A DNA stretch of 60,466 bases, filler included, from Jimgerdemannia flammicorona (GCA_003990765.1; 3 parts of 3 records of this genome joined end to end with filler, not necessarily neighbours in it); one strand, 5' to 3'; shown: positions 3,635-44,887, counted from the whole stretch's first letter. Numbers and translations are program-made. Notes: a model not told the origin generated them from the letters alone.

Positions 3635-5697
3635 TGTAAGCACACAACCTCCAAGCCACTGAAATTACACGTCACCCTCTGAACAAGTCACTGAAATCAC
3701 ACGCGACCTCTGAACAAACCTGGAAATCACCTGCTTGATCAAGAAGCTGAGTCAAACTGAAGTCACAGCTCACAAAGCTGAGTCAATACGAAGTCACAGA
3801 ACACAAGATTTATACAAATGGAATCTTGCCAATCAGGACCAAATGCATATATACTGAGCACCAAGATGCGTCGAATCAGAGAACTAAAACAAACAACAAC
3901 CACAACTTCCAAACACACAAATATGACAACTGAAATCTACAACTGTATCCGCGCTGACATTTGGAATGCCATTGTCAACCAAGCCACACCCCCTCTGCCC
4001 CTCATGAATATCCATAGCCTAGCACTCCTCTACTTCATGGAAGCCTGATAGAATGCTCTGAACATGCTTAGCGAGGCCCACCAAATCGGACAAATCTCAA
4101 GCTACTACCAGATCGGCCACCTCCTAGAAGACATGGTCAAACACCACCATGATACAGACATTACCCAGATGTCTCAACACCAGAAGCTCATCACCTGCAA
4201 ACATCGAGAACTCTTCTATGAGTACAGCACTATTATTCCCCACCTCCGAGTTACTACCAGCGAAATGGTTGCTACCCTGTCCTACAGTCAAATCGATGAC
4301 ATGATACAAGAACTCAACCAGAAGTACCTCGAGTACATCAAAACCACAGACAGAACCTTCCCACACCCCAATGATCATATCCTGCAAATGCCCCAAGTTG
4401 GATATGCCATGAAGGACATCTACAATATAATCCACTTCGATGAAGATGAAGCAGAAGACGATGATCCCTCTGATACTGACATGACCTCTAGCCAAGGATC
4501 TCTGCCAACTCTGATCACTCCACCAACCTTGCCAATGAACTTACAACAGTTCATAACTACATATGAGACTTATTGGGACAATGACCACTGGCATGAATAC
4601 CAACCCACGTTCACTCCAACTACTTCAACTACAATGAAGAAACTGGAGAACACAACCTGTACCTTCAGACAACCCTCGTGATCGAACCAACCACTCCACC
4701 ACCCGAGTATGAGTGATATGAACCACAGCCGCCAGCTTACTACAATCCTGCAACTCATAGTGCTGTAACCTATAGAAGGTACACAGACAGTGAATCTGAT
4801 GAAAGCGAAGACAATACACCCATCCTTCACCCACCAACACCTTATCCAGCCTACGAGACAGACAATGCTATCCTGTGGGATGGAGACGAAGTCCCAATGT
4901 ATTACTACCTCAGCAAACAAGGAGAAGTAATCCGCAAACCACTCTTCCTAGACAACTACTTTATCAGAGATGATGTCATTGATGGTGATGTCATCGAAGA
5001 CTACCTAGACAGCACCTAAACCCATAAATAGCCTAGCAGTCATAGTATAGTTAGATTAGCATTGTATGATGTGACTGTGAATTGACTCAGCAGTCAGACG
5101 ATCTCTTGACATATCAGATCACACTTGTACTACATGACTGCATTCTGACTCAGCAAAGCACTTAGTGCTACATCCATATCTAGCATAGTCCAGATAGCCC
5201 CTCACTAGTATAAATACCCCCTCCCCCAGACCTCAGAATCTCAGACTCGAACACACAAGAACATTTCTGAATACTTCCCCACAATATCCCTTCACACAAC
5301 TACTCCTAGTATAGCAATATCATGAATAGCAAATAAACCTATTCCATAATCCACAAACCACTCTTAAGTAAATCTACTCCCTGTTAGGTCCCACTCCTAA
5401 CCATGTCACGAAATTTCCTAATTGGGTATTGTCTGCAGCGATACGCTAATTCAACTAAGCTGGCCTTAGTTTCTTGAACTTCCTGAAATATGGAAAATCC
5501 TGAACATCCAGAACTAGTCCAAAAAAAGGGACTTTGGTTGAGACGTCAATCCGATCTTGAAATCAATAAGCATAGAGGACATACTCTATACAAAATTGAT
5601 CTTGACCATAAGAAAACAGTCTTTCAGAATATCCAGAATATCCAGAAAACCTTTCCAGAACTACATAATGGTTACCCTAAAAAGTAACCCTCTTACA
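3635..5697 (+). mobile_element. 2.06-kb solo LTR (family X) containing a protein-coding ORF in U3
   Basis: TGTAAG...CTTACA termini; 5-bp TSD TCCCA (3630-3634 / 5698-5702); TATAAA at 5209 and AATAAA at 5332; further copies at 37770-39283, 51865-53857, 53986-55270. Confidence 0.85.
3818..5019 (+). pseudogene. LTR-embedded accessory ORF (~400 codons, disrupted); N-terminal domain homologous to ORF3 at 44426-44887
   Basis: ORFs 3818-4048 and 4064-4681 are in frame across stop codons. Reading continues via frameshifts to ...FIRDDVIDGDVIEDYLDST*. Confidence 0.7.
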
Positions 5698-5702
5698 TCC
5701 CA

Positions 5703-6087
5703 CCAGATCCAAGTGCCGCTCAGCTTCTACTTCACCCTCTGCATTATCCTGAGCATCCAGTACTCCCAAGATTTCCTGACATTCCACTCTGTCCACTTCC
5801 TCCATATCAGCCCTGTAGTCTAAGCAGACAGCACACCACTTCTCCAGTCCCTTCCTCGAATTCCACAAGAAAATTGCTCTATCACTCACAATCCTCCTAA
5901 GTTCCTCCTCCCGCTGATCATCAATCTGATACTCAACCGACTCCAGGAGGACTGCTAGGATCTCATTCCTCATCTTCCTCAGCACCTCCTCTCCCTGTAG
6001 GATCTCCTCCCAATGCTTCTCCTCCAACACCCTGAAGTCCTCACCCCCCAGCTCTTCAGCTGCTACCCCTTCCAAGATCTTCCACAT
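5703..6087 (-). CDS. LINE ORF1b, acidic helical segment in frame after the ORF1 TAG; its end (3606-3634, ...VGDEMSIEL*) is displaced by the LTR insertion
   Basis: Open frame, homologous to copy B (7680-8039). Removing the LTR and one TSD restores a continuous frame to a TAG at 3606-3608. Confidence 0.55.
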
Positions 6088-7392
6088 CTACTTCTCCTCA
6101 TCTACTGCCTCCGCCGCCCCCTGAGTGATTTGTCCTCCATCCACATCGGGGTCCACCAGCGCGCTCCTTCCCACCAACTCATCCCACTCCTCATCTGGCA
6201 CATCCATCAGCTCCTCCTCTCCCTCTGCCCCATCCAGAACACTATACTGAGGGTGCACACCCTCACCCATTTTGGCATCCACCTCCAAATTGCCCTCCCT
6301 CCCCTCCCCACCACCAATCCAAATTCTGCCCTGGGCCATCTCTCCCCCCTCAGCCCAGGCGCTCTCCCATGACCCTACCACTCCCTCTCCTGAGCTTCCA
6401 CCAGCCCCAACCTCGCCCAACTTTGCCAACAGCTCCTTCTGGATCCTCCTCCCCTGCATCTTGTCCCAGGCCCCCTTCTCTATCTGGATCCTCTTCCCAT
6501 CCACCTCCCCCATCACTGTCCTGGCCTCAAACTCCTTCCAGGCCAATTTCCTCCTCGCCACTGCCCCTTCCAGGTCCTCCAGTGCCTCCAACAGGTCCTC
6601 CTCCTCCTCCGGAGTCCCCTTCACCCTGGTGACCTTGCACTCTACCGGTCCCCACCTCAGTGCCACTGGCCAGTCCCTCGACTTCCCTGTATTCTCCTTC
6701 CCAGCCAGCCTCACCCTGACATCAACATCGCCAGTTCTAAGCTCTGTACCCTCCCAGACCTTGAACCCAACATCCACAATCTCACCATACTCCTTGACCA
6801 CCTCCACAACCAACTCCCTGGTCCTTTCCTTTGACATAGTTGGGAGGTCCAACACCATCAACTGCACCACTTGGGGGTCCCAGTGCATGCACTGGGCCAT
6901 AGGAACCACAACTCTGCCAACCATCACCCCCTTCTCCATAGCTGCCAATAAGGCATCTTCCTCCTCAAACCCCACCTCAACCCCTTCCTTTCCCCTCAAG
7001 AACTTCACCAACGCTGCTTCCTTAGCATCCTGTACCACCAGCCCCAAAATTATCCTCGCTGTCACTGCCAAGCCCCGGAAGCATATTGTGACCGCGAATT
7101 CTGACCTCGACTTCTTGAGTAATGGGGCCGACACCATGCCCGTCACCCCATCAGCCAGGTCCCTGGGCCTCATGCCTACTCCAAGTCCCAATTTGCCAAC
7201 TGCTGTCACATCTGGATTTTTTGCCAGATCCCCAATCACAGCCCCATCAACAGTCACATCTCTAGCCCCTACTCCGGCCCCTTCCCTACCCTCAGAAGTA
7301 CCCCGGGGTGCACCTCCCTGACTCCTAGCAGTAGCCATCGATGCCTTCCCCAGGCCCAGCCAACCATCTAGCCCAGAAGCCATCTTCCCCAT
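6088..7392 (-). CDS. LINE ORF1 (Gag-like nucleic-acid chaperone, RRM-like)
   Basis: 434-aa ORF upstream of ORF2 with LxVLDLP..., YGEIVDV pattern typical of L1/Tx1 ORF1. Homologues at 8040-9330 and 57213-57800. Confidence 0.75.
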   Translation of the reverse strand: MGKMASGLDGWLGLGKASMATARSQGGAPRGTSEGREGAGVGARDVTVDGAVIGDLAKNPDVTAVGKLGLGVGMRPRDLADGVTGMVSAPLLKKSRSEFAVTICFRGLAVTARIILGLVVQDAKEAALVKFLRGKEGVEVGFEEEDALLAAMEKGVMVGRVVVPMAQCMHWDPQVVQLMVLDLPTMSKERTRELVVEVVKEYGEIVDVGFKVWEGTELRTGDVDVRVRLAGKENTGKSRDWPVALRWGPVECKVTRVKGTPEEEEDLLEALEDLEGAVARRKLAWKEFEARTVMGEVDGKRIQIEKGAWDKMQGRRIQKELLAKLGEVGAGGSSGEGVVGSWESAWAEGGEMAQGRIWIGGGEGREGNLEVDAKMGEGVHPQYSVLDGAEGEEELMDVPDEEWDELVGRSALVDPDVDGGQITQGAAEAVDEEK

Positions 7393-7669
7393 TTGGACCT
7401 TGTCAGCAAAGGTCGATCTCTCCCCTCCTCTCTGCCTCAGACCGCCCCTCCCTCCGCCACCAGGGCCTCAGCTAGCCATCGAGGCCCCTGGCATCCCCAA
7501 ACCATCTCCCCTCCTCCCCATCTGCTGCCAGCCAAAGGCGCCATCACCCCCCTGGCCAGTATACTCACTAGTTCGATCGTTGCCGTCCATGTTGTTAGTC
7601 GTCAGACACCAAAAACGTTGTAAAAAGTGTTGTCTGAGTCTTGTGTCACCCGAATGTTACTGGTGAAAG

Positions 7670-9591
7670 AGTCAACTTCCAAGTCCCCCTCTGCTACAGC
7701 CTGAGCATCTAATGTCTCCAAGATTTCCTAACGTTTCACCCCTTCCACCACTACCATCTCTGCCTGATAGTCTATATTGACCACTCTCCACTTCTCCAAT
7801 CTCTTCCTTGATCTCCACAAGTAGGCTACCGTGTCATTCACTATTGCCTGGAGTTCCTTCTCTCTCTGATCATTGACCTGATATTCAACTAATTCCAATA
7901 GTACTGCCAGGATCTCATTTCTAACCTTCCTCAACACCTCCTCCTCATGAAGGATTTCCTCCTAATGCCTTTCCTCCATAACCCTGAAGTCCTCTACCCC
8001 CAGCTCCTCTGCTGCCACTCCTTCCAAAGTCTTCCACAGCTATTTCTCCTCATCTACTGCCTCTACCATACCCTGGGCAATCTGACCATCCTCTATCCCC
8101 AGGTCCACCAGAGTGCTTCTCCTCACTGACTCATCCCACTTCTCATCTGGAATATCCAGCAACTCCTCCTCACACTCTGCCCCCCCAGGGACACTATACT
8201 GAGGTTGGACACCTTTACTCATCACTACATCCACCTCTTCCCTGCCCTGCTCCTCCTCCCTTAGTCCAACCCAGGCTCTACCTTGGGCCATCTCAGTCAC
8301 TAGCATGCAACCCTGCTCACCTGACCCCTGTGCTACTGTCAGCCCCACCACCCCCCAATTTCACCAGCAGCTCCTTCTGGATTCTCCTCTCTCACATCTT
8401 CTCCCAGGTCACCTTGTCCACCCTGATCCTCTTCCCCTCGACTACTTCCACCACCATCTTCACTTCAAACTCCTGCCAAGCCAATCTCCTCTCAACCACC
8501 CCCTCCAGGTCCTTGAGAGCCTCAAGCAAATCTTCCTCCTCTTCCAGAGTTCCCTTCACTCACCTGACCTTGCACTCTATTGGTCCCCACCTCAGAGTTG
8601 CTGGCCAAACCCTTGTCTTTCCCATGTTCTCCTTTCCAGCCAGCCTTACCCAGACATCAATGTCACTAGTCTGAAGCTCTATTCCTTCTCAGACCTTAAA
8701 CCCAATGTCCACAATCTCCCTATACTCCTTGACCACCCCTACAATCAACTCCCTGGCCCTCTCCCTTGACATCATAGGAAGATCCAACACTGTCAACTGC
8801 ACCACTTGGGGGTCCCAGTGCATGCACCTGGCCATAGAGATCACCACTCCACCCACTGCTACCCCTTTCTCCATAGCAGCCAACAATACTTCCTCCTCCT
8901 CAAATCCCACCTTGACTCCTTCTTTCCCCTTCAAAAACTTCACTGATGTCACCCCCTTTGCCTCCTACACCACCAGCCCCAAGATCATTCTCACTGTCAC
9001 TGCTAAGCCCCTGAAGCTCATTGTGATAGTGAATTCCAACCTCGATTTCTTGAGTAATGGTGCTGACACCATGCCCATCACCCCATCCACTAGGTCCCCA
9101 GGCCTCATGCCCACCCTCTGTCCTGATCCATCAACCACTGTCACATCTGGATTTTTTTTCAAATCTCCAGTCACAGCCCCATCAACAGTCACATCACCAG
9201 CCCCTACTCCCCCCCCTCCTCTACCACTAGGTGCTCCCCTGGGCACTCCTCTCTGACCCCCAGTAGTAGCCATTGACATCTTCCCCAGGTCTAGCTAGCT
9301 ATCCAGACCTGAGGTGATCCTCCCCATCTTGACCTTATCAGCAAAGGTCGACCCCTCCCCTCCTCACTGCCTCAAGCCACCCCTCCCTTCGCCACCAGAG
9401 CCTCAGCCAGCCATCATGGCCCCCAGCATCCCCAAACCATCTCCCCTCCTCCCCACCTATTGCCAGTAATAGGCACCACCACCCCCCTGGCCAGCATACT
9501 CACCAGATCAATTGTTGCCATCTATATCGATAGTTGTCTGTCACTAAAAATGTTGAGAAAAGTGTTGTCTGAGTCTTGTGTCACCTGAATG
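7670..9591 (-). mobile_element. LINE copy B (5'UTR + degenerate ORF1/ORF1b), cut by copy A
   Basis: Collinear similarity to 5715-7656 with the same 5' terminus; many stops. Confidence 0.85.
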
Positions 9592-9599
9592 GTATCAGT

Positions 9600-11051
9600 G
9601 AAAGATGAGCCTCCAATGACAATTACTATTTTTGCCATCAAGTTTGCTCAAGCACCACCTGAAAGCATTGCCAAACCAATTTCCCAGATATTCCAAATCT
9701 CACAGAGAAAAGGCCTTACAAATCAGACATTAGGTGTGCTTTCGGTGCAGCCAACAAATGTATTAAGAAAGTACATGATGACCAACTGAGGCAAGAAGTC
9801 ATAAGAGTGATAGAAAATCGTGCGAAAATTATGAAATGTTTATCATACCATACTGGCTTCAAGGTGAATATCAAAGCATAGAACAAGCAAGGTTATCTAG
9901 ATAGAATTGTCATCATGGATGAATATGAAAAACTGCTGGCCATATTTGAATGAGTACTAGTGAAGAATGACAAAACACTTTATATATAACTGATGGATAG
10001 CAGGCTTGTGCATTTTGTTGAGTAGGGTAGTGATAGAGAAGATAGAGAGGTGGGAGAAGTCAGTGCCAGTGGAGGAGTCAGTGTCAGTAGAGAGGTCAGT
10101 GGAGAGATCAGTGCAGAGAAGGTCAGTATGGGAGAGGTTGGCACAGGGGAGGTCAGTGCAGAGGAATATGGAGAGGTCAGCATGGGGGAGGTTAGTACAG
10201 AGGAACATAGAGAGGTCAGTACAGAGGAATATAGGGAGGTCAGCATGGGAGAGGTCAGTGTAGAGGAATATGGGGAGATTGGCATCAGGGTGATCAGTGT
10301 GGAGGAACATGGGGAGGTCGGTGAGGAGGAATATGGGAAGGTTGGTGCAGAGGACAAAATGAAGATTGATATGAAGGAGGCCAGCACAGAGAAGGATATA
10401 GAGGAGGAGGATATAAAGGAAAGCAGTTTGGAATATATGGAAGAAGATGGTTCAGAATATGAGAAAGAAGAGGATCAGTTCGTTTATAGTGATGAAGAGT
10501 AAGATCTGTTCACACCAGTAAGTTCTTTATTTTCCTGATTTACTTCCTATTTATTTCTGATTTTATTTTGATTTCTGATTCCTAATTGTGTTTCTGTTTG
10601 TTTATTCTAAATATATATCTTAGATATGCAATAAATTTTTTTTGGTGCCTTGTAGCTTAAAGGTGAATTAAAGATGAGTCTGTGTCAGATTTAATATAGG
10701 TCAGAGTCAGGTCATGTATATTTCTTGGGTTGGGTCACATATATTTCTTTGGTTAGATTATGTATATTTCTCAGATTGGGTTAAAGACAGGTTATATATA
10801 ATTCTGGATTGGGTTAAAGATGGGTGACATTTGTTTCCAGATCAGGTTAAAGATAGGTGACATATAATTCCAGGTTGGGTTAAAGATGGGTGATATATTA
10901 TCCTAAGTTGGGTTAAAGATAGGTGACATATAATTTCAGGTCAGATTAAAGATGGGTGATGTATAATTCCAGATTGGGTTAAAGACAGATGATGTATAAT
11001 TCTGAGTTGGGTTAAATATGTACATGGGTCAGCTTGGGTTACAATGCACTA
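9600..11051 (-). mobile_element. Putative hAT-like DNA transposon end with CpG-depleted 33-bp subterminal repeats; left boundary uncertain
   Basis: ~10440-11051 is the reverse complement of 59893-60466. Terminus TAGTGCA; ACCCGACCCG-type subterminal repeats. Confidence 0.6.
10050..10502 (+). repeat. Glu-rich low-complexity ORF built from ~15/39-bp repeats (EVSxEEYGEVSMG), probably the 3' part of a transposon-borne gene
   Basis: Periodic GAGGTCAG(T/C) motifs. The C-terminus EDQxVYSDEE* is also present at 60378-60466 (minus strand). Confidence 0.5.
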
Positions 11052-13664: not shown

Positions 13665-13760
13665 CTGCCGTTCCGCCGTTCTGCCAATGGTCTAGCCTCC
13701 GTTCTGCCAACGGTCAATAGCCGCCGTTGTCCCAATGATCAATAGCCGTCGTTCTGCAAA
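13665..13760 (+). repeat. Degenerate ~23-25-bp tandem repeat (GCCGTTCTGCCAAYGGTCAATA)
   Basis: About four imperfect units visible. Confidence 0.5.
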
Positions 13761-23814: not shown

Positions 23815-23953
23815 TTTCCCGTCAGAGAGGTAACAAATACGCAGAGAGGCGCAGCAGTGTGTCGTCCGGTCACGTGAATAGTGATCAGGTGACGTCTCCA
23901 GCCACCAATCTTCAGACTTCGAAACTACGACCCTTGGACCTTCTTCGTAAGCC
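23815..23953. promoter_or_regulatory. Short putative bidirectional promoter between the RtcA-like and TrhO-like genes
   Basis: Divergent start codons ~140 bp apart; CACGTG at 23871-23876 and GTGACGT near 23890. Confidence 0.4.
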
Positions 23954-25505
23954 ATGTCCATCCCTCGAATCGTATCAACGCTTGTCGCGTCCACCCGATG
24001 CGCATTTAGACCCGTACACCCACTCCCTCACCACACACCCAATGGCTCCTGTCTACTTTACGTGCGACTATGCGTGCCACCTCTCCACGCTCTTCTCTCC
24101 CCTCGCCGCACCTACACCTCCACCATCGCACCCTCACCCCAATCGAAGCCCAAAAATAAAGCTAAATATTTGCCGCCCGCCCTCCCGCCACCAGACCCGT
24201 CCAGCTATCGCACCCTTGCCTTCTACAAGTTCCACCCGCTCGACCCGTCGACCCTGCCCGCCCTCCGCACGACCCTGCTCGCCGACCTGGGAACTCACCA
24301 CATCGTCGGTCGTGTCTACATATCTACCGAGGGCATCAACGCTCAGCTCGCTGTCCCCGAACATAACATCCTGGATCTCCGTCGCTACGTAGAGACCGTT
24401 CTTGTTGACCACACTGGCCCTGTCATGGACTTCAACTTCGGCACTGAGCATCGCAAGGCCTTTCGCGCGCTGCATGTCCGGATTCGAAAGCAGGTAGAGC
24501 AACGCAAGTATTTTACCTTTAGTTTCTCTCTTATTTCATGCCATCATCGCCACTCACGCATTTTTCGCACAGCTCGTCGTCGACGGCCTCGATCCCAAAA
24601 CCTATAACCTTGGGCTCCAACCGAACCACCTTCCCCCCCCGGAATGGCATGTGCGGCTGGCAAACTACGAGAAGACGCATGGCCGCAAGCCCGTGCTGAT
24701 TGATATGCGCAACCACTACGAGTCCGAGATCGGCCACTTCGAGGGCGCGATCCGTCCGGACGTCGAAACCTTCCGCGGGTCCGTCAAGGCCATGCGCGAG
24801 ATTTGCAAAGACTTGCCCAAGGACGAGGAGGTGTTCATGTACTGCACCGGTAATTTATTCTACCCATTTCCAGTCCTACGTACCTAATCTCGACCCGAGA
24901 CCACCGTCTAACAACCCCGTCCCCAAATCGCAGGCGGCATCCGCTGCAGCAAAGCTGGTGCGATTCTTCGCTCAACAACAGCCCTCCAGCACGTACATCT
25001 AGTTGCTGGTGGGATCACGGCGTACGGACGTTGGATTCGTTCGCATCCCGACCCGCCCAGCTCGCTATACCATGGCAAGAACTTCACGTTCGACTCGCGA
25101 CTGGGTGAACCGATCACGAACGAGGTGCTCTCTCGCTGCCACGTTTGCAGTGAACCTGCGAACACCTATACCAACTGCGCCAACGCCGGGTGTAACCTAC
25201 TGATGATTGCGTGCGCCGCGTGCAGGGAGCGACATGCTGGGACGTGCGGCAGGAAGGTGTGCGTCGACGTCGTAAAGGGGTGGGAGGAAGGAGAGGGAGG
25301 AAGGGTGGTCGAAGTGAGGGAGTTGGAGGAGGGGAGGCCCGTGATTGGGACGGGATTGAAAAGTGGCGTGCATAGGTTGAGGGTTAGGCCGAGAGATGTG
25401 CTGGGAGGGGTGGAAGGGGTTGGGAAGAGAGGTACGGAGGGGATGATGAGCACAGTAGTGATTGGGTTGGAAGAGGTCGACGGAGAGGGGGGGATGTGTA
25501 GTTAA
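23954..25505 (+). CDS. TrhO/TSTD2 (UPF0176) rhodanese-domain protein, tRNA U34 hydroxylase-like; possible mitochondrial presequence. Exons 23954-24493, 24573-24849, 24934-25505
   Basis: FYKF, GRVYISTEGINAQ, DMRNHYESEIGHFEGA, YCTGGIRC, GGI..Y, GKNF.FD.R, C..C...NCAN..C...C..C motifs; spliced frame is intact. Confidence 0.9.
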
Positions 25506-28666: not shown

Positions 28667-28733
<67 letters not shown>

Positions 28734-34246: not shown

Positions 34247-34336
<90 letters not shown>

Positions 34337-35542
34337 CAAGAATTTGTTTAGTGATCTTCTATATGTTGGTATTCTTGACATATTCTTTCTTAACTTTCTC
34401 AAACAAACTAGTGATAATATTACTATTAGCAATAAGATCAACTTTCTGAATACTTTGTAAAAGTATATCAGCTACTTTATTTTTAGTGCTAACAATATAC
34501 TTAATCTTAAAATTAAAAGATATAAGAGTTTGCATTCATTGTGCTTATCTTTTTATAAGAATTGACTATATCTGAATATATTAGAGAGCTTGATAGTTTG
34601 TCCAGAGAGTGAACTTTTGTCAAAGAGAAAATGTTATCAGATTTATAGTGATCAGATAATAGTAAGAAGTTTTTTATCTTATATAGTATAGTTTTTCTCA
34701 TACTTATTCAGTTTCTGAGATAAGTATGTAATCAGGTATTCATATTGAGTCAGAATAGCTCTGATGGCAATATTTAAGATATCAGTAGTGATTATAAAGA
34801 GTCCTATAGAATCAGGACTAATTAGAATTAATATATTAGTTGAGAGTATTTATAGCTATAGTATATTCTTCTATTTATCCTTTTTCAATATTAGTTCTCT
34901 TCTTGCAAAGGCTTATAAGTAGAGAGATAATTATAGAGAATCCTTAAATAAATCTTTAGTAGTATCTGGCTAGTCTATTAAATTCTTATAGAGACTTAAG
35001 GATCTTTAAAATAGACTAATTGTAAATTACTTCAATCTTCTTTGAGCCAAAAGTAATACTATTTATCAATATGATATATATCTTAAATATTTAATTTTCT
35101 TTTTGAAGAAGTGATATTTCTTTTTCTTTACTAAGAGTTTATATTTATAGAGTACATTAAAGACAATTTGAAGATATTATTAGTGATCAGAGGTACTTAT
35201 ACTATATACTAAGATATTGTTCAAATATATTAAAACAAATACTCTAAGATATTTTTAAAAAATATTATTCATTAATGTCTAGAAGGTTACTGGTATATTG
35301 ATGAGACTAAAGAGTATTATATAAAATTTATAATATTCAAATCTTATTTGAAATACTGTCTTTAGAATATTCTCTTCTTTGATATAAATTTGATAATATC
35401 TAAATAAAAGGTTAATGAGTAAGAAGGTTTTAGTATTAAATACTTAATCAAATAGCTTATTAATATATAGAAGTATATATTAGTTCTTAATAGAGATCTT
35501 ATTGAGTATCTAGTAATTGATACATATATATATAGAGACTTC

Positions 35543-35544
<2 letters not shown>
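31700..35544 (-). mobile_element. Heavily mutated Ty3/Gypsy pol remnant (RT-RH-IN) with further insertions; boundaries approximate
   Basis: Decayed RT motifs near 35200-35540 (KKxGSL.MCIxY) and integrase-like motifs at 33500-34200; very AT/TpA-rich. Confidence 0.65.
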
Positions 35545-35580
<36 letters not shown>

Positions 35581-37080
35581 GTTATATAGACTTCTACTTT
35601 ATTACCAAATTATCTATAATTTGCTACTAATACAAATGAGCTCCTCACCCTATCTTTCTTAGAAACTCCTTTTCTCTCTCACTATTTCTCTGAAAATCAA
35701 TCTCTCTACTACCTCAATCCTCTCTCTACTCTTTCTATAGATAGTCTCTACTAATTGTCTTTGATATTCTCCACCAGCACCCACCCCTCCACTATCCATT
35801 CAACATATCTATCATCAGCCACTCCTATTTAGTCACCTTCATCACCAATATTAACTATTGATCTTTCTCAAATACAGAAAGCCAATGATCTACAAGACTG
35901 ATCCAAATTGCCAGTACCCATCCTAGTATCAACTACTTATCTCCTAACTCCCCCACCAGCCTCCTCCAGAGGTCTCCCCACCTCTCTTCAGCTATCAACC
36001 CTAGTAAGTAGACCCCCAGCTATATCTCAATCTCTCTTCAAAAGTCACCTATTACCTTATACTCTCTTAGCCAATATTCAGGCATCTGTACCACTTCTCT
36101 CTCCTATCTAATGTTCAGATACTCCTCACACTCCTGAGTTCCTTCTTTCATCAAGTAATCTGTCTAGTAGTTCAATATTACATTATGCTGTAGAATTCTC
36201 TACTATATTACTCAGAACTTGGGGAGATCTATCTTGCTGCCTACTTACCCCACTGCTAAATACTATTCTAGTCCCACTCCTCACTAATCCCCACTCTCTG
36301 CTATATCTTAGATCACAGATCTCTTCTATATTTCTGAAGGCACTCCATACCATCCTCCAAACAGAAGTTATCTACTAGTACTCTGCCCAACAGAAGGTCA
36401 TCCTACTTCTATATCTAGAGTCTCCATTCCTCCTCCCCCTCATCACTCTATTATCAGAGATTAATATAGTATGCTCTATCAACCACTTCCCACCAAAATC
36501 CCCTATAATATATCCTCTGACTTTCCTCCAATACTACTAGAGATAGAAGATCCCCAATTATACTATAGAGGAAGAACTGAGTCCCTCACACCCTCTATAT
36601 AAGGGGAACTCACTCTCTACCTCTCAATTCACTTACTTGCTTTATCTACCATACTCTTAAGCAGTGAAGATACTTAGAGAAATCCATCAGACCCAGGTCA
36701 CCCTAGTCCATTGGCTAGATCAATACCTCCTAACCAATCTAACTCTATCATCCTATCTATATCCAGGTCTTGGCTATCTTTAGCAATCACTTGATCACTC
36801 ATGCTAGGAAGTCTAAGTAGTACTCTAGATACTATAGCTTAGATATCTAGTAGACATTCAACATTATTACCCTCTCTGTCTGAGATATATAGTAATTATC
36901 TCACCCCAAGAGAGTATCTCTCTACTCTGTAAACTACTGCTCCCACTACCTATACAGTAGTAAGGAGCTATATACTAAAAAGTAAATTCTCAGATAGCAA
37001 ACAATCTCTCCTATAGAGATAATTGTTCTAATCACATCTCTACTGACTATTCCTTCTCTCAATACCAAAGTCTCATACTT
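35545..37080 (-). mobile_element. 5'-truncated LINE 3' fragment with poly(A) tail, related to copy A
   Basis: Poly-T at 35545-35577; 36070-36130 aligns with 350-410 of copy A. Confidence 0.75.
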
Positions 37081-37769
37081 ATACAGTTCTGGTATAGGTA
37101 ACTGCTTTTTGGATAGAGTTGAGATAGGAGAGGAGATGACCATCACAGATAAGAGGAAGAATAATTATAGTAAACCAGTAGAGTACTAGACTGATAATAG
37201 TTATTGGGGCTGATATAAGTGCTATATTGGTGAAGCCTTCTAATTAGTATAGGATAGTTAGATGGTAGGTATATATTACTCTTAGTAGTGCTTAGCAATA
37301 TATAAGATTAGGCTCTAGTAGTTGAAAATTATTGAGAAGTCTGAGACTATCTAGATCAGATATTTTGACTATACTTAGCTAGAACTAAGAGCTGATATAG
37401 TAATACAATTAAGGCCTGCAAACTTGAGTAGTGGAGTATTGGGAGTCTCCTTTTATCTCATATATAAGTCCTCTACTTATATATCTCATTAGAGAGAACC
37501 AGGTCCTGCCTACTATTCTGTATTTTTAGAGAGTTTTTTCTTTTATCTATTACTCTACTTAAAGTGGTGGGAGTTATATAAATTAGCTTGGGCATGGTCT
37601 TGTATATATATTGGAGTTTTGGATATATATTTTTGATCATAGATATATGGTCACTTTCCCTCTAGTAGTAGGAAGAATATGATATACAAAATAAGATATA
37701 GATAATTTTACTCTACTATACCTGATATGGTTAAGCTATTGGACAATAGCTAGCCTAGGTTTATAGAGA

Positions 37770-38612
37770 TATAAGAAGGTTACTTATAAAAGTACTATTA
37801 CATAGTTCTGGAAGGGTTTTCTGGAAGTTCTGGATATTCTGGAAGACTGTTTTCTTTAGATTAAGATCAATTTTATATAGAGTATATTCTCTATACTTAT
37901 TGATTTCAAGATCAGATTGATGTCTCAACCAAAGTCCCTTTTCAGACTTATTCTAAATGTTCAGGATTTTCTGTTTTTCAGAAAGTTCAAGAAACTAAGA
38001 CCAGCTTAGTTAAATTGGCATATTGCTATAGATAATATCTAATTAGGAAATTTCATAATATAGTTAGGAGTGAGACCTAATGAGGTACAGATTTACTTAA
38101 GTATTATTAAATAGGTTTATTTACTATTCATGATATTGCTATATTAGGAGTAGTTGTATGAAGGAATATTGTGGAAAAGTATTCAGAAGTTGTGTTTGAA
38201 TTGTTCTTATCTAAGATTCTAAGATCTGAGAGAGGGGATATTTATACTAATAGGAGACTATCTGGACTATACTAAATATGAATATAGTACTTAGTGTCTT
38301 GCTGAGTCAGAATACAGTTATATAGTATAAGTATAAACTAATATATTAAGAGATTATCTAACTGCTGAGTTAGTATATAGTTATATTATATAAGACTAAT
38401 CTAACTATATTAATAACTACTAAGCTATCTATAAATTTAGATACTATTTGGATAGTCTTCAATGAGATTACTATTGATAACATTATCTCTAATAAAGTCT
38501 GAGCAGTTTTCTGACTTCTGATATCATTAGTTTCAAAGATATCATCACATCTGCCTCTTGCAAAATTAAAGCTGTCCTCAATGATAGTAGTTATATAAGA
38601 ATAACAGGTCTT

Positions 38613-38652
<40 letters not shown>

Positions 38653-39283
38653 CTACTGGCACATTTGTAAGAACTGGTCATCCTTGTCTAGAGCAAGAGC
38701 TCTCATTGTTATAGCTGGGAGTTCAAATCTCTTAAAAATGATATCTTCTATAATCCAAAATAATTTCTAATAGCAATATCTATTATATGGATAAATTTGA
38801 GATTGATTTCAACAATGTCAACTTTCTTGAGTTCAGATGAAGCATCTGTTATTCTCCAATAGAGATGATATAGATAGGATAAATAGAGTTATTCAAATGT
38901 ATTTTGCTTTTGCTAAGTAATAAGATCTTATATAGTTATAGTATATCTTAGTCTTGAGTTGATAAGTGTGGTTCATGAACCTTTGATAGATGAGATAGAG
39001 TTCTTCTCATTTCAGTTTGAATTTGATACTTCAGTTTTCTTTTATAATAGTACATTATACTAAGACTGATTGTATTAATGAATAGAGATTTAGAGTCAGT
39101 CTTATAGTTATAGTACTTCTTTTAGTATTCTTATATCTTGGTAGTAAGTTCTCATACTTACTGGTATATTTTATATAACTAGGTGATCTCTTTAGTAACT
39201 TGTTTTATAATCTTGTATATAATTTCTAAATTTGTTCTGAGGGTAATATATAATTTTGATGGCTTAGAGATTGTATGCTTATA
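37770..39283 (-). mobile_element. 1.5-kb variant solo LTR of family X with a different internal segment
   Basis: TSD AGAGA (37765-37769 / 39284-39288); mutated TATAAG...CTTATA ends; 37770-38500 aligns to ~4960-5697; 38500-39250 does not match the 3.8-4.9-kb ORF. Confidence 0.8.
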
Positions 39284-39372
39284 AGAGATATAGTGCTTGA
39301 GATGAGAGTGAGAGAGAGTTTTGGCCTATATAGTTTAGATTTTCTTCCAATAAAATCTATAGAACTTAAGTT

Positions 39373-39411
<39 letters not shown>

Positions 39412-40105
39412 CTATATAATTCTCACAATTGTATATACAGATTTCACAGATATAATTTATATAGATATATAAATATCTCAACTATGAAATGACTTATAGG
39501 AAAAGAAGTCTAACTTAGCTATTATATAACTGATAAACTTATATAATATCTCTAGTATCTAGAGTAAATAAATCTCAAATCAAAATAGTTCAAGTAAAGA
39601 GTCAAAAAACTAGTAAGTCTGTAGGCAGATATAGATACACTTTGAACTCACTTACCCCTATACCTGAAAACTCTAAGAAGTTAAAGAAGATTAAGTATTT
39701 AAGATAAAGAAATCTACTATACTTCTGTTAGTATTCCTTTGACTATTTTGTATCTATATTTAGAGATAATATTTTAAAAGTTTATAACTTTTAAAATTAT
39801 AATAGCTTATAAAAAAAAATTACTAATAATTTTTTATATAATAATTCTATCTTTGGCAAAAATTTTATAAAAAAAAAATGAGATATATTTTTAACAGAAA
39901 AATAATATTTCAAAAAATCATTTTTTCAAACTTTAATTTATCTGCTAAATGATTTTAAAAGACAATCTTATCTATAGTCAAAGAAATATATTTACTAGAT
40001 TATAATATATAGCTATATAATATATTTTAAGCTATAAATTTAGTAAAATTTTAAAATACTTTTATAAAAAAATTAATTATTATAAATATAAGAGAAAATA
40101 CTAAA

Positions 40106-40180
<75 letters not shown>

Positions 40181-40280
40181 TATATAAATAAACTTAAGAG
40201 AGTTCTTCATCAGTCTATAGAATTTTATTATATATATATTATTATATTTATTTATTTTTTTAGTAATAAATGAAAATATA

Positions 40281-40380
40281 NNNNNNNNNNNNNNNNNNNN
40301 NNNNNNNNNNNNNNNNNNNNNNNNTTAATTAATTAANNNNNNNNNNNNNNNNNNNNNNNNNNNNNNNNNNNNNNNNNNNN
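40281..40380. other. Artificial contig linker
   Basis: N44-TTAATTAATTAA-N44. Confidence 0.98.
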
Positions 40381-41340
40381 AAAAAAAAAAAAGAGATAGT
40401 AGAAGCTCTAATTAGTCTAGTTCTACTAAAAGCTCAGGAACTCTTTAAGAAATTTCAAGATATTTTTCAGAAATCTACAGATCTTTTATTTAAGCATCAA
40501 ATCTAACATAATATTGACCTCATACTAAGAGCATAAAAGTATCTACCAACTAACTCAGTTTGAGCTCAAAGTTTTTAAGAAGGAACTGATCAAATTACTT
40601 GCTCAAGAATATATCAAATTAAGCATATTGCTCTTTAAAGTACTAATCCTCTCTATTAAGAAGAAGAATAGCTCTTTATAGATATATATTGACTATAAAA
40701 CTCTCAACAAGATCACTATCAAAAACTGATATACTCTTCTAAGGATTAATAAGCTACTCTATCAGATATTTAAGATTAAGATATTCTCTCTACTAGATCT
40801 ATAAAATAGATATCACCAGATCCTTATTAATAAGAAAGATATAGAGAAAACAGTCTTTAGGATATAGTTTAGATATTACTAATTTCAACTTATATATTTT
40901 GGCCTAACTAATATCTCTACAATCTTTTAGAATTTTATGAATAATATCTTTAGATTATTACTCAATATATGTATTCTAGTATATATTAATAATATTTTGA
41001 TCTACAGCAAAATAGCTGAGTTACATTATACTCATCTATAAAGTATACTGAACTTACTATAAGAGCACTAGCTCTATATTAAGATGAGTAAGTATAAGTT
41101 CTACCAAGACCAGATTAAATATTTAGGATACTATTATCTCAGCTAATAGTATTAAGATAGATTTTTAAAAAGTATCAGCTCTATAAGATATTTTCATCTC
41201 TACTATTCTTAAGCTTCTTTAATACTTTTTAGAGATTGTAGATTACTATTGCTATTTTATTCAAAGATACTCTATAATTACTACCCTATTTATTAGTCTA
41301 GCATAAAAAGAAATCAATATATTAAGATCAAATAAATCTC

Positions 41341-41658
41341 TATTACTCTTAAACAAATTAAATCAATTTGAATTAAATCAAATTTGAATTGAATTAGGGG
41401 TCCAATTCAAACTCTATTTTTTGAAATATAATAACTCAATAAATATATATCCAAATTTAATGATCTTTAGCCTATTAGATTTCTCTATATAAGGAGAATC
41501 TAATAAGCTAAAAATCATTAAATTTAGAGATATATATATTTATTAAGTTATTACATTTTAAAAAATAGTATTCAAATTAGACCTCAAATTGAATTAGTCT
41601 TTGATTTGATTCAAATCAAATTAAATTAGATCTTTGATTTAATTTGTTGAGAGTACTA
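41341..41658. mobile_element. Foldback/MITE-like ~320-bp palindrome inserted in pol
   Basis: Left TATTACTCTTAAACAAATTAAATCAA pairs with right TTGATTTAATTTGTTGAGAGTACTA; inverted symmetry continues to the centre at ~41490. Confidence 0.75.
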
Positions 41659-43951
41659 GATCTTTATCTATACTGATTGCATCAGACCTTACCAGATTTT
41701 TTATATTGACTATAGATATATTAGATATTACTATTGGGGCTATACTAAGCTAAGAGCACTGTCTAGTGATCTACTTATCTCAGAAGCTTAAGCTAGTGAA
41801 AACATGCTATACTATCTATAAGAAAGACCTTCTAGTTATAGTTACTATTCTATAGAAATAGTATTACTCTAATAAGATAGTCTTTCATAGTCTATACAGA
41901 CTACTATACCCTTAGATATATTTATACTCAGCCAATACTGACCTATAATTAAGTATAATGGATAGAAATTATTACTCTCTTTAATATGGAAATTAAGTAT
42001 ATTCTAGACAAAATCAACCAAGTAGCTGATGACTTCTCAAGATATATATATAGAAGGTAAAGTTATCTTCATGGTAGAAGTAATCAGTAAACTTATCCAA
42101 CTAATCAAAGATGGCTATCAATAAGATAGTTAACTACTAGATTTTCTCTGATACTATCAAGATCTCAAAACTGAGATATTTGAACTAATAAAGAGAATAG
42201 TCAAGAGATTTATCTATTAGAATAAACTTATCTAGAATACAAAAGAGTAGTAGTATTTAGAGATAATACTCTCTGTCTCAAGATTATATAAGAACTCTAT
42301 AATATTCTTATAGCAGATTACTTTAGATTTGAAAAGACCTATAATCTCATCTCTAGAGAATTCTACTTGTCAAAGATAACTAAGGATACATATCAAGATC
42401 TTTATAGTATCATATAATATGTACTAAAGATTCAAAAGTAATAACAAGCTACCAGTCAGACTTCTATAATCTCTGTCAATCTCCTCTCATAACTGAGACC
42501 AAACTGCTATAGATTTCATTATTCAGCTATCCAAGACTTGAGTAGGATGAGATACCATCATGGTATTTATAGACTATCTCAGCAAGTAAGTCTACTTTGC
42601 TCTCACTAAGATAACTATAATAGTATCTGAAGTAGCTGAGATCTTTTTGAACTAGATATTTAGGCTATATAGTATACTAAGTACTATTGTATTAGACTAA
42701 TATTGGGATAACAACTCAATATGTAGATATGTAACTTTACACTATACTTCATTCTATTAGTTTTATATTATTTATCAGTAATGTGTAAAATATATGATCT
42801 ATATAACTTCAATAAAAATATCTCTCTCTTTATAATAAAGGTTATGAGTTCTACTAGTACTAAGTAGCTATAGTAAATAAATATATCTCTTAATATACAA
42901 TATGCTAGAATATCAAGTGATGGCCAGTCTAGTAATATACATATGTAAGTATAGAAATAGATATATTAATTATAAGTATTCTGGTAATATAAGTTCTCAT
43001 TAGTACTATAGATATAACTACTATAATAGATATGAGAAATATAGTTCTAGTTATAAGTATAAATACAGCCAAGAGGTCTATTTCAATCTTCAATAAAAAA
43101 GATTATATAATCTAAATATTCTATATAACAAATTTCTTTAATAAATATAGCTTAGCAGAGTATATAAGACTATAAGGGTAAATTCAAGATTATAATACTA
43201 CAAATAATTGCTGAGTATTATAAGAGATTACATTTATATTATTGAACTTCTAAATAAAGCTCATAATATATACAATGACTACTTACAAGATATGGAAGAC
43301 TCTATATAATCATCATATATAAATATCTATATCAAATCAATTCTATCTAAAATCTTAGCTATTTAATCTATGAATAAAGTTCAAAGAAACTATCTATAAA
43401 CTATTAAAGAGCTCATCTTTACTCAAAATAACTCTACACTAATCAAGTAAGACAATTAGTCAATAATAGTATTTGCCAAGAATCTAGTACATTATAATAA
43501 AATGAAATATATCAATATATAATATTATTTTATATAGAAATATATAGAAAATAGTACTATATATTTAGATTATATCTCTACAAAGTATATAACTACTAAT
43601 TTACTTATAAAAACCCTTCTAAGACTAAAGTTCAAGTAATGTATTAAAGGAATGAGTCTTATGAGTAATATACCAGTATTTGGATAATTTCATAATATTT
43701 TTCAGACTGTAAAAAGTCTTTCTTACAGTACTACAATTATATATATTATATTTTTTAGTAGGTATTTCAGATATTTTGAAATACTTTTTAATATATGAAA
43801 ATTTCTTAGATATAAGATTTTATAATAGTAATTTGGGTTATATATAGTTCTAGTTTTTATATATATTATATATTACTTTTTATTCTAGTTTGTATTTTCT
43901 TTTCTTTAGATACAGTTAATATATATATATATTTTTTTTTAATTTTGGTAT

Positions 43952-44388
43952 TGTAACATAGTGGATACTAAGATAGGCAAGTATGTTGGATTTCTTTATC
44001 TTGAATTCTTGTCTTCTTGACTCCCAGAGTCAGTAGTTCCTTGAGGCCAAATGTGTTTAAAGAGGTAATTCCGAAGGTCCTTTTATCAGTATACTTGTTC
44101 TTTTTCTAACACTTTTGATCTGAGGTTTATTCACTTGAAGATACTAGGTTATTTATACAAGTTTTCTAGCTATGAGATGGCTACTGAGTTACATGGCTAA
44201 GTTATGAGTCATTTAGATAATGTCGAAATGCTATACTAAATCGGGGTGTTCGATTTGGACAATGTCTAGAAATTTAGACAATGTCGAAATCAGTGACTGC
44301 TAACTATAAAACTATACTACTTTGGGAATGGGTGCAATCAAGTATCTATTCTCTATTTCCTTCTTCCTAATTCAGCTATACCATCACA
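43952..44388 (-). repeat. 3' LTR
   Basis: Direct repeat of 50141-50577. Confidence 0.95.
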
Positions 44389-44425
44389 ACTTCCTTCTGA
44401 ATAGATGGTCTCATCTCTGAGGCAT

Positions 44426-44887
44426 CTATTCAAACTCCCATGCTTCAACTATCTGTATGGTTTTGTACTGTTTAATTTGTTGCATGACTATCTCCCAATG
44501 ATGTCTCCTTATTTTATCGAAGTTGGTAGGGGTTACTCCTCGTAGGTGAGCTAATGCTGATTTATCTTCTTGAAATAGCTTGTGGATCCTTTTGGCAATA
44601 GTAATCTGTGAGTAGGAGAGTTGGCACTCTGCAATCCAGTCTTCTTTGGTCTTTGCTGAATTCTGGTTGAGCACCTGTCCAAGCTTGAAGTACTCTTGGA
44701 ACTCTGCCCAATGTTGGTAGGCACTAAAATGTAAGATCCGAGAGAGATGAGTCTGTACAATACTCTGAATATCCTCATAGTATGCCTCTATAGTTGGAGG
44801 CTCAGTGGTGTGCCATTGTCTTTCAATAGCCCTTTGTGTAGCACTAGTGATCTTGAGTGCTGCTGCAGTGCTCTAGTTATTGGCCAT
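44426..44887 (-). pseudogene. ORF3, ~153-aa accessory protein downstream of integrase (one stop at codon 5)
   Basis: MANN*STAAALKITSATQRAIERQW...YFKLGQVL...QLSYSQITIAKRIHKLFQE...HLRGVT...WEFE*; its ATG overlaps the last pol codons. Confidence 0.75.

Follow-up and report, generated by a model that had tools for sequence, protein, structure and literature searches.

Evidence for a shared accessory-gene family in LTR retrotransposons, placed after integrase in a Ty3/Gypsy element and inside the U3 region of another element

The window (the whole stretch of DNA analysed, 60,466 nucleotides including filler) contains a decayed Ty3/Gypsy element, Gypsy B, and LTRs of a second element, element A (Table 1). 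The LTRs of Gypsy B (43951–44388 and 50140–50577) are 438 bp long and 93.6% identical. Its integrase terminates directly past a GPY/F-type motif and is followed by ORF3, which has its ATG at 44887–44885 and its stop at 44428–44426; the N-terminus reads MANN*STAAALK, codon 5 being a stop here and R or W in homologues. The arrangement of the ORF3 ATG and the pol end is also found in contig L001, which has the full architecture, and in L002, which, like L003, is a short contig comprising ORF3 and its flanks only. In this dUTPase-bearing lineage, in which no chromodomain was detected, ORF3 opens in the +1 frame, its ATG falling inside the tyrosine codon of LKKY, the conserved end of integrase, or directly past it, and the stop lies 36–37 nt ahead of the 3' LTR. 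ORF3 is a separate sense-strand ORF between integrase and the 3' LTR in Gypsy B, L001 and L002. The gene order of L001 is gag / CCHC-PR-dUTPase-RT-RNaseH / IN / ORF3, and its integrase contains Integrase_H2C2 and rve domains with no Pfam match to a Chromo domain. Each element has its own short U3 direct repeats: Gypsy B has 3 x 19 nt, L001 has 5 x 20 nt, and LTR A has the two tandem pairs listed in Table 1. Such repeats are usual in LTRs, whether or not a transactivator is present.

Table 1. Coordinates of the retrotransposon features in the window
Feature	Position	Strand	Basis or remarks
Target-site duplication of LTR A, TCCCA	3630..3634 (left), 5698-5702 (right)	.	Flank reading
LTR A, solo LTR of element A	3635..5697	+	2063 bp; TGTAAG...CTTACA termini, flanks read, other copies mapped
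U3 repeats of LTR A	3652..3800	+	Tandem repeats of 25-31 nt, in two pairs; 5' of the ORF A start codon
ORF A	3923..5019	+	About 365 codons; comparison with P0012 and P0011
Conserved, predicted helical domain of ORF A, common with ORF3	3923..4330	+	About 135 residues; hhalign (144 columns), HMM, reciprocal search
C-terminal extension of ORF A, acidic and aromatic	4331..5019	+	Composition of homologue P0011; no Pfam match
TATAAATA box of LTR A	5209..5216	+	Downstream of ORF A
Gypsy B, decayed Ty3/Gypsy element	43951..50577	-	LTR-gag-PR-dUTPase-RT-IN-ORF3-LTR; LTR pair and Pfam
Spacer, ORF3 stop to 3' LTR start	44389..44425	-	37 nt (TGTGATGG); 36 nt in L001 and L002
ORF3 of Gypsy B	44426..44887	-	153 codons; between integrase C-terminus and 3' LTR
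Overlap of ORF3 ATG and pol end	44877..44887	-	11 nt (ATGGCCAATAA); ORF3 in +1 frame relative to pol
Gypsy B IN zinc finger	45645-46154	-	Pfam
Gypsy B RT	46552-47217	-	Pfam
Gypsy B dUTPase	47221-47982	-	Pfam
Gypsy B PR	48149-49087	-	Pfam
Gypsy B gag	49331-50026	-	Match to L001 gag
Second solo LTR of element A	51865..53857	-	TATAAG...CTTACA; target-site duplication TAAAC on both flanks
LTR A fragment	54994..55253	+	Matches the initial 260 nt of LTR A at 81% identity
Ty3-capsid-like gag fragment	55974..56478	+	PF19259 E 1.2e-15, PF03732 E 5.1e-13; adjoins the LTR A fragment

LTR A has TG..CA ends with a short terminal inverted repeat and is flanked on either side by a 5-bp target-site duplication; it and the copy at 51865–53857 are solo LTRs. 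The second copy is heavily mutated by C>T and G>A changes and holds a degenerate copy of ORF A (53572–52532). Such changes account for 372 of the 511 differences between the two copies, with CpA and CpG preferred, in agreement with the proposal made in the first-pass annotation that this genome hypermutates its repeats. The same annotation placed the two ORFs in different retrotransposon families, which holds for the LTRs only (438 bp versus 2063 bp, with no BLAST similarity), element A being known here from LTRs alone: the window yielded neither a full-length copy (two copies of LTR A around gag-pol) nor an internal region, and Pfam searches with read-through translations of 38499–43950 and 50578–51900 (minus strand only) returned no families. 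The gag fragment at 55974–56478, which has no similarity to the gag of Gypsy B or L001, is only possibly linked to element A.

ORF A had been placed at 3818–4681; comparison with two public protein fragments moved its start to 3923 (MTTEIYN) and its end to 5019. P0012 (128 aa) matches 3923–4306 at about 86–88% identity, and P0011 (247 aa, 66% identical) matches 4265–4603 and 4618–5013 in two frames; both are open throughout. In LTR A the frame is interrupted by two adjacent stops at 4046–4051 and shifts between 4603 and 4618. Neither copy of ORF A in the window is intact and, judged from their reading frames, the window copies of ORF3 and ORF A are not functional here. As TATAAATA (5209) falls downstream of ORF A within the TG..CA unit bordered by its target-site duplication, the earlier placement of the ORF in U3 is upheld. 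On this reading of the LTR, ORF A lies wholly within the U3 of a 2-kb LTR, with the N-terminal domain kept and a much longer tail, and is therefore located, like ORF3, on the 3' side of pol in the genomic RNA. Each LTR, including a solo LTR, receives a copy of a gene in this position.

Direct comparison of ORF3 with ORF A gives weak evidence of a relationship. Pairwise sequence similarity is marginal (BLASTP, E 0.001–0.006), with 1/2000 shuffles scoring as well for the best pair, and 52/1000 and 240/1000 (the worst) for other ORF3 family members, and a tblastn search of the window with P0002 did not match ORF A at E<=10. An hhalign comparison of shallow profiles gave an E value of 0.13 and a probability of 0.5%, an ORF3-only HMM scored ORF A at E 0.078, and an ORF A HMM scored the window ORF3 at E 0.71, with none of six ORF3-family proteins below 0.1. 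The pairwise, first hhalign and tblastn results would fit a chance resemblance, in which the window ORFs are unrelated and their motifs, present in both and in register as first described, are coincidental among helical low-complexity ORFs. Because this direct evidence is weak, homology was argued by transitivity, through a bridging subfamily.

A protein of this subfamily, P0015, was found with the ORF3-only profile at E 3.4e-5 among 1.84 billion representatives, and P0002 matches it at E 6e-12. A profile built from ORF3 and the bridging family, with ORF A left out (A5), picks ORF 4052–4678, which is ORF A, at E 1.2e-7, as its sole non-self match among 1047 window ORFs (next, 1.9). None of 5000 shuffles reached the real score of 20.3 bits (shuffle maximum 11.3), and a reversed-sequence control scored 0.8 bits. 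Alignment of A5 with A2 by hhalign gave 79% probability and E 1.6e-5 over the full length (144 columns, from residue 1 in both), and a bridging-family HMM recovered the window ORF3 at E 2.2e-13 and ORF A at 2.5e-5. In the reciprocal search with the ORF A HMM, 4 of the 11 proteins of the bridging family scored E<0.01 and outranked all unrelated ORFs (best 0.39). Both genes also begin at an aligned methionine, and both are 3' of pol. Chance is thus largely refuted and has become highly improbable, and the homologous domain proposed for the two ORFs is borne out. The tails are another matter: 760 of 5000 shuffles scored as well as the comparison of the ORF A tail with the bridging-family tail, so their relatedness is not supported. 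The two loci share no DNA similarity in a self-BLAST of the window, as had been noted.

ORF3 and ORF A very probably belong to one lineage-restricted family of accessory genes of Ty3/Gypsy LTR retrotransposons. The label "fungal" for this family is based on the RIP-like mutation pattern together with the literature on dUTPase-bearing fungal Gypsy elements. A family search found 24 proteins at E<=0.01, and identity between subfamilies is 28–38%. The check on selection suggested at the outset was run on the bridging subfamily (L001, L002 and L003), in which pN is 0.23–0.32 against a saturated pS of 0.71–0.84, and dN/dS is 0.18 for the single computable pair; on these substitution patterns, the comparison shows purifying selection.

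The family protein is predicted to have a core that is soluble and all-helical, about 135 residues long and of near-neutral charge (pI 6.2–9.5), followed by a disordered acidic and aromatic tail (pI about 4.0–4.5). Tail length is 13 residues in ORF3 (3 D+E, 3 aromatic), 29–31 in the bridging subfamily (12 D+E, 5–6 aromatic) and about 235 in ORF A; P0011 has a pI of 4.05, with 46 D+E and 36 W/F/Y per 247 residues. The best AF2 model (pLDDT 75.7, pTM 0.70) has helices only, as had been anticipated, with tail residues 142–167 below pLDDT 50; it was the one model in five with a pLDDT above 60 (the others reached 50–58), and a first model from 10 sequences had a pLDDT of 54. No membrane segment was found in the four proteins tested, in which the maximum 19-residue Kyte-Doolittle mean is 0.19–0.97; this agrees with the earlier description of a soluble, non-Env protein. 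The family does not fit an Env-like ORF3 of the errantivirus/Athila type, for which a signal peptide and a transmembrane segment would be expected: none of the four has a segment hydrophobic enough to span a membrane.

The family is, by these searches, uncharacterised and previously unnamed. No Pfam family was matched at E<=1 beyond noise by the window ORFs or the 35 members of A7, and the likeness to DUF3102 once suggested found no counterpart among these matches. The sole HTH-related match, HTH_Tnp_Mu_2, concerned 2 of the 35 A7 members at E 0.031, below any threshold, and no HTH structure was present among the fold matches, for which a confident query model came from one of five AF2 runs. 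Nothing significant was found in the PDB by sequence (best E 0.41) or with Foldseek (best E 0.93), or in BFVD (best E 0.62), and VIA-align found no fold match at Z>=5 (best Z 3.3).

Foamy-virus Tas/Bel1 is a 3'-end accessory gene reaching into U3, with a structured N-terminal part and an acidic C-terminal activation region, and it needs a separate mRNA. The coding sequences of MMTV sag and HIV nef overlap U3; sag encodes a type II membrane glycoprotein and nef a myristoylated protein. The present family resembles Tas/Bel1 in its 3' position or location in U3, in its structured N-terminal part followed by an acidic tail and, as inferred here, in a separate mRNA, but it has no sequence or fold similarity to it (PDB, BFVD) and its host is not an animal. 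ORF A resembles sag and nef, the analogy first drawn for it, in being a sense-strand coding sequence in U3 upstream of the TATA box; unlike them, its family has no hydrophobic segment and no similarity to either, and the whole gene, not just its end, lies in the LTR.

In the available text on bdelloid rotifer LTR retroelements, ORF3 types are shared between retroelement lineages (PMC5408684). There too, ORF3 follows pol as a third gene, in Ty3/Gypsy-like elements with a dUTPase, and one ORF type recurs across different families of retroelements, a sign of modular gene sharing (PMC5408684). The rotifer ORF3s described in that text are Env-like, GDSL esterases or DEDDy exonucleases (PMC5408684), whereas the present family has no enzymatic or membrane signature or Pfam match and has one gene inside an LTR. 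The fungal Gypsy elements with a dUTPase named in the available text of PMC2864245 are PosPlaTy3-5 (Postia), Phanerochaete elements and Tmt1 (Tuber). Gypsy B and L001 resemble them in having the dUTPase between PR and RT; the elements of that paper's title contain a chromodomain (PMC2864245), whereas none was found in the L001 integrase. For some fungal elements, a figure legend there notes an "add. ORF" whose function is unknown (PMC2864245); it may or may not belong to the present family.

In all three subfamilies the gene has a conserved start codon of its own, for which reason a subgenomic mRNA (spliced or internally promoted) is the probable source of the protein, rather than synthesis as part of Pol. 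Of the roles considered, the most likely is that of a nuclear regulator of the element: nucleic acid of the element or a host factor would be bound by the core, and host machinery would be recruited by the acidic, aromatic tail, as in Tas/Bel1. Such a regulator is still a tentative possibility, short of probable; one shared accessory family and a Tas/Bel1-type role, taken as a blend, are slightly better than an even prospect. Tails of acidic and aromatic composition are not confined to activators. They would also suit protein–protein contacts in an adaptor, with ORF3 tethering the pre-integration complex to host chromatin or a transcription factor in place of the chromodomain of chromoviruses. 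The domain content of the L001 integrase, the abrupt end of the Gypsy B integrase and the translational adjacency of ORF3 to integrase are in keeping with this role, but it is unlikely, since the U3-embedded form has no known link to such an integrase and chromodomains are commonly absent from Gypsy elements without ORF3. Likewise, a gene located 3'-terminally on the genomic RNA, with a conserved spacer to the LTR, could suit a factor for RNA handling (Rev/Rex-like export, or packaging or stability of genomic RNA). This is decidedly unlikely given a core that is neither arginine-rich nor strongly basic, and spacer hairpins whose folding is no better than that of shuffled sequences (z 0.13, -1.7, -0.9).

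The mutation of repeats by the host might instead suggest counter-defence, the protein antagonising silencing by RNAi, DNA methylation or RIP-type mutation, or else hijacking a host degradation pathway, as do the small, helical accessory proteins Vpr, Vpx and Vif of retroviruses. Counter-defence proteins are often small, helical, lineage-restricted and fast-evolving, as this family is. However, no likeness to known suppressors was found in Pfam, PDB or BFVD, the window copies were inactivated anyway, and the low pN/pS indicates conservation rather than an arms race, making this role improbable. For ORF A, it could also be argued that U3 acquired an ORF3-type gene, through template switching or nested insertion, as a functionless passenger, with only the post-integrase ORF3 functional. 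The broken window copies are consistent with this, as is the fragment at 54994–55253, in which similarity to LTR A stops about 26–29 nt short of the ORF A ATG position, as in the gain or loss of a cassette; beyond the break, only the TATA motif is shared (17/18 nt, E 0.05). The fragment could be explained just as well by a nested element that interrupted a copy of LTR A, another LTR-like end pair lying nearby (TATAAC at about 55260, GTTACA ending at 55735), and P0012 and P0011 remain open throughout, which suggests constraint over some divergence; a passenger is thus rather doubtful.

In its boldest form, the regulator reading would have fungal LTR retrotransposons encode a Tas/Tax-like transactivator family of their own, moved between Gypsy lineages and lodged in U3 in one of them; this is an outside prospect. 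If true, every LTR, even a solo one, would be a self-contained regulator gene beside its own target promoter, and scattered solo LTRs could act in trans on the whole family.

Gypsy B is a decayed Ty3/Gypsy element recognizable from its LTR pair and its Pfam domains, which are listed in the table below with the other mobile-element features. Its LTRs are 438 bp each and share 93.6% identity. The pol product ends in ...LKKYHGQ, with a stop codon at 44879-44877, and one in-frame TGA precedes this terminal stop. ORF3, the gene that follows the integrase (44426-44887), has its ATG at 44887-44885, overlapping the end of pol by 11 nt in the +1 frame. It is translated as MANN*STAAALK...EAWEFE, and its stop codon (44428-44426) lies 37 nt from the 3' LTR, from which it is separated by the spacer TGTGATGG. 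A hairpin considered in this spacer was rejected as no better than those of shuffled sequences. The flanks of the element (50578-50582 and 43947-43950) read ...TATAC before the LTR and ATACC after it, which points to ATAC as a 4-bp duplication, not one of 5 bp. The PBS-like TTAGTGCCCA of Gypsy B differs from TTGGTGCCGA of L001, a metagenome contig carrying an ORF3 homologue, by changes that include a G>A.

Coordinates of mobile-element features in the window and in metagenome contig L001 (contig positions)
Feature	Position	Strand	Evidence or remark
Gypsy B, Ty3/Gypsy element	43951-50577	minus	LTR pair and Pfam domains
Gypsy B aspartic protease	48149-49087	minus	Pfam
Gypsy B dUTPase	47221-47982	minus	Pfam
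Gypsy B reverse transcriptase	46552-47217	minus	Pfam
Gypsy B integrase zinc domain	45645-46154	minus	Pfam
LTR A copy 1	3635-5697	plus	ends TGTAAG...CTTACA; TCCCA flanking each side
LTR A copy 2	53857-51865	minus	TAAAC flanking each side
LTR A partial copies	54791-53985, 38498-37768, 54994-55253		
Ty3-capsid-like gag fragment	55974-56478	plus	PF19259 E 1.2e-15, PF03732; mutated zinc knuckle
L001 gag	220-1104		matches Gypsy B gag region, E 1e-23
L001 CCHC-PR-dUTPase-RT-RNaseH	1105-4935		
L001 integrase	5094-6452		without Chromo match
L001 ORF3 homologue	6397-6897		

The LTR A units are solo LTRs of about 2 kb. ORF A, the gene that they carry, lies in U3, as the first-pass annotation had proposed, because TATAAATA at 5209 comes downstream of it. 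That annotation was right about the existence of this reading frame but not about its extent. The public protein P0012 (128 aa, starting with MTTEIYN) is 86% identical with 3923-4306, and P0011 (247 aa) matches 4265-4603 and then, in a different frame, 4618-5013; the intact ORF A therefore spans 3923-5019, about 365 codons, and is longer than reported. In copy 1, two adjacent stops (4046-4051; R and W in P0012) interrupt it, as does a frameshift between 4603 and 4618; in copy 2, it is present and full of stops. From copy 1 to copy 2, 372 of the 511 differences are C>T or G>A, with CpA and CpG favoured, and GC content falls from 0.43 to 0.27. Judged from these substitutions, the spectrum is a RIP-like pattern, in agreement with the repeat hypermutation suggested earlier. 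Two AT-rich blocks (32000-44000 and 50600-55000; GC 0.18-0.28) are built of C>T/G>A-mutated repeats and contain T or A homopolymers of at least 50 nt, together with a run of N near 40300 that was read as an assembly gap. A tRNA-like spacer at 53858-53984 was ruled out, ARAGORN having found no tRNA within the window. Read-through Pfam searches for an internal region of element A returned no family in 38499-43950 and 50578-51900 (minus strand, three frames each) or in 56700-60466 (plus strand, three frames).

Several other features lie around these elements. The solo LTR at 3635 directly adjoins a minus-strand ORF of the endonuclease/exonuclease/phosphatase type (2838-3613; PF03372, E 5e-4) that looks like the beginning of an ORF2 of LINE type. 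Positions 5720-7670 and 7672-9605 form a tandem duplication (unit about 1.95 kb, 76% identity); it lies in GC-rich DNA whose plus strand has a very strong C-over-G skew (-0.4 to -0.57), and none of its long ORFs, which occur on both strands, matches Pfam. A 33-nt tandem repeat (TTTAACCCGACCCGGAATTATACGTCACCCGTC) forms arrays at 10465-11020 and 59895-60415, which are in opposite orientations and 82% identical over 519 nt. The stretch 56750-57200 has a 9-nt period (GGGCAAGAC-like), one frame of which gives a collagen-like G-x-x pattern, and probably represents a simple repeat instead of a gene. A host gene on the plus strand (23951-25502), probably split by an intron, encodes UPF0176 acylphosphatase-like and rhodanese C-terminal domains in consecutive ORFs.

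The likeness between ORF3 and ORF A is marginal by itself, as judged from pairwise sequence comparison. BLASTP gave E 0.006 for the two window sequences and E 0.001 (27% over 62 residues) for their intact relatives P0002 and P0012. The best Smith-Waterman pair was equalled by 1 of 2000 shuffles, and other ORF3 relatives by 9, 44, 52 and 240 per 1000. The LTR ORF was absent from a tblastn search of the window with P0002 at E<=10, and hhalign between shallow alignments of the two families gave E 0.13. The connection comes instead from a third, bridging group of proteins, which both join. Only five of 1.84 billion representative proteins matched a profile of ORF3 relatives at E<=0.001, P0015 (E 3.4e-5) being one of them. 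This protein aligns with P0002 at E 6e-12, and end to end with P0012, beginning at residue 1, at E 0.002. A wider search gave 24 proteins, half of which (12, P0015 included) belong to the bridging subfamily, whose members have about 165 aa and the pattern MPxxSYQR...EGEYPPFIDFG...ELDEWDL.

Profile searches covered every one of the 1047 ORFs of the window (stop to stop, at least 30 aa). A5, an alignment of ORF3 and the bridging family containing no LTR-ORF sequence, recovered ORF3 at E 4.6e-58 and then the LTR ORF at 1.2e-7, ahead of a next match at 1.9; with a bridging-only profile, the corresponding values were 2.2e-13, 2.5e-5 and 0.13. P0012 scored 20.3 bits with A5, against a maximum of 11.3 over 5000 shuffles. 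Comparison of A5 with the LTR-ORF alignment in hhalign covered 144 columns, with a probability of 79% and E 1.6e-5. Reciprocally, the LTR-ORF profile matched four of 11 bridging proteins at E<0.01 (best 6e-6; best unrelated ORF 0.39) and none of six ORF3-family proteins under E 0.1; the reversed-sequence control gave 0.8 bits. On these profile comparisons, it is concluded that the ORF3, bridging and LTR-ORF groups are homologous, and the shared domain that had been proposed for the two genes is upheld through the bridging group. The likeness between the ORF A tail (PLFIDNYF...acidic end) and the bridging PPFIDFG...DEWDL gained no support as homology, its HMM score being equalled by 760 of 5000 shuffles. 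P0014, a protein of 455 residues with six repeats of about 75, matched positions 97-131 of the ORF3-family profile in six short stretches (E 6.8e-7). It may be a repetition artefact or be distantly related to the conserved IAxR..LF helix, and was excluded from every alignment as a probable repeat artefact.

A metagenome scan with the A6 profile yielded three loci, L001, L002 and L003. L001 is a contig of 7944 bp with repeated ends (99 nt identical), the form in which an assembler renders an LTR element. In L001 and L002, which have the same LKKY ending as Gypsy B, the ORF3 ATG falls within its tyrosine codon and in the +1 frame, and the ORF3 stop is 36 nt ahead of the LTR start (TGTGGCGG / TGTAGCGG). 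Because order, ATG and spacer match, ORF3 is an orthologous third gene in Gypsy elements of a dUTPase-bearing lineage, for which no chromodomain match was obtained (L001 integrase). Nei-Gojobori comparison of the three loci gave pS values of 0.71-0.84, which are saturated, and pN values of 0.23-0.32, with a dN/dS of 0.18 for the only pair in which it could be computed; pN far below pS indicates purifying selection on ORF3. Scans of public viral contigs with A5 and the LTR-ORF alignment A2 gave no confirmed locus, and the ESM Atlas returned only unnamed small proteins for P0002 and no usable match for P0018, another public protein.

The two genes had been assigned to two different retrotransposon families. 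The LTRs of Gypsy B and element A are indeed unlike in length and sequence; the interior of element A was not found in the window. The fragment 54994-55253, the opening part of an LTR-like stretch (54994-55735), corresponds to the first 260 nt of LTR A (81% identical), and the Ty3-capsid-like gag begins about 720 nt past it. This gag has no similarity to those of Gypsy B and L001, and no pol follows it on the plus strand to the end of the window. Past 55253, only a TATA motif is shared with LTR A (17/18 nt, E 0.05). One of two readings is that the fragment is an ORF-less variant of LTR A, in which case ORF A would be a U3 cassette that can be gained or lost and the element would belong to a different Gypsy lineage; the other is that another element, with an LTR starting at TATAAC (about 55260) and ending at GTTACA (55735), has inserted into a copy of LTR A. 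A third idea, a shift of the PPT or LTR boundary by which the LTR would have extended upstream across an ancestral ORF3, was rejected: the 200 nt past the ORF A stop have no significant similarity to their equivalents in L001, L002 and Gypsy B (230, 62 and 32 per 500 shuffles equal), and the positive control, L001 with L002 over the 200 nt past the ORF3 stop, was equalled by none of 500. In a MAFFT alignment of the 3' parts of the LTRs, the TATA region is common to Gypsy B and L001 only. Around the TATA box, five LTRs that are otherwise dissimilar have a core GTATAAATA(A)CCC in common (Gypsy B ~50345, L001 ~7630, L002 ~995, LTR A 5207, and 55517).

The encoded protein resembles no named domain. 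Pfam returned no family for ORF3, and over the 35 members of alignment A7 the best E value was 0.01, with scattered families; DUF3102, to which a likeness had been suggested, was absent from both sets of matches. A PDB sequence search gave a best E value of 0.41. AF2 reached a pLDDT of 54 from 10 sequences; from 35, the best model had a pLDDT of 75.7 and a pTM of 0.70, the remaining four having pLDDT values of 50-58. The best model contains helices at 3-18, 35-73, 88-101, 105-110, 116-120 and 124-135, and a disordered tail (142-167). Searches for a known fold with Foldseek against the PDB (best E 0.93), VIA-align over 48,161 chains (best Z 3.3) and BFVD (best E 0.62) likewise found none. With a pI of 6.2-9.5, the core is close to neutral, and the tail is acidic and aromatic-rich (pI about 4); the LTR-ORF extension seen in P0011 has a pI of 4.05, with 46 D+E and 36 aromatics per 247 residues. 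None of the segments has the hydrophobicity needed to cross a membrane, and the predicted protein is consistent with the soluble, helical, non-Env product first envisaged.

The protein is conserved, selected, soluble, helical and acidic-tailed. Its gene has its own start codon, at the aligned position in all three subfamilies, and a fixed location near the 3' terminus of the genomic RNA, directly before U3 or within it. To be translated separately, it would need either an internal promoter or a subgenomic mRNA. Many activators are laid out in the same way, with a structured core ahead of an acidic, aromatic tail, and the short direct repeats that the U3 of each LTR bears, of a kind ordinary in LTRs, could serve as binding sites. 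Tas/Bel1 of foamy viruses has the same layout of core and acidic tail, and its gene also extends into U3. By this analogy, the protein may tentatively be viewed as a regulator of the Tas/Bel1 type, a doubtful assignment but the one preferred here. It is improbable that the same soluble, acidic-tailed protein acts as a targeting adaptor, and equally so that it is a counter-defence factor; a role as an RNA factor is more unlikely still.

Accessory genes are what separates complex retroviruses from simple retrotransposons and, to our knowledge, they have hardly been described in fungi. Additional ORFs are known in LTR retrotransposons, including rotifer ORF3 types common to unrelated retroelements (PMC5408684). 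Fungal Gypsy elements with a dUTPase are also known, and in one survey (PMC2864245) a figure legend refers to an 'add. ORF' whose function is unknown. No account of the ORF3 protein family was found in the literature searched, although Figure 3 or the supplements of that survey may show such an ORF; nor, as far as the searches reach, was any account found of a retrotransposon gene wholly inside an LTR. The third gene described here is conserved and selected, has no known domain and occurs in at least three subfamilies, one of them wholly inside an LTR; with the A7 profile, fungal genomes can be searched for the family. A passenger without function would be a minor annotation point. If the protein is an element regulator or counters host silencing, it would provide a handle on the persistence of Gypsy elements in repeat-mutating genomes and a fungal counterpart of Tas and other retroviral regulators.
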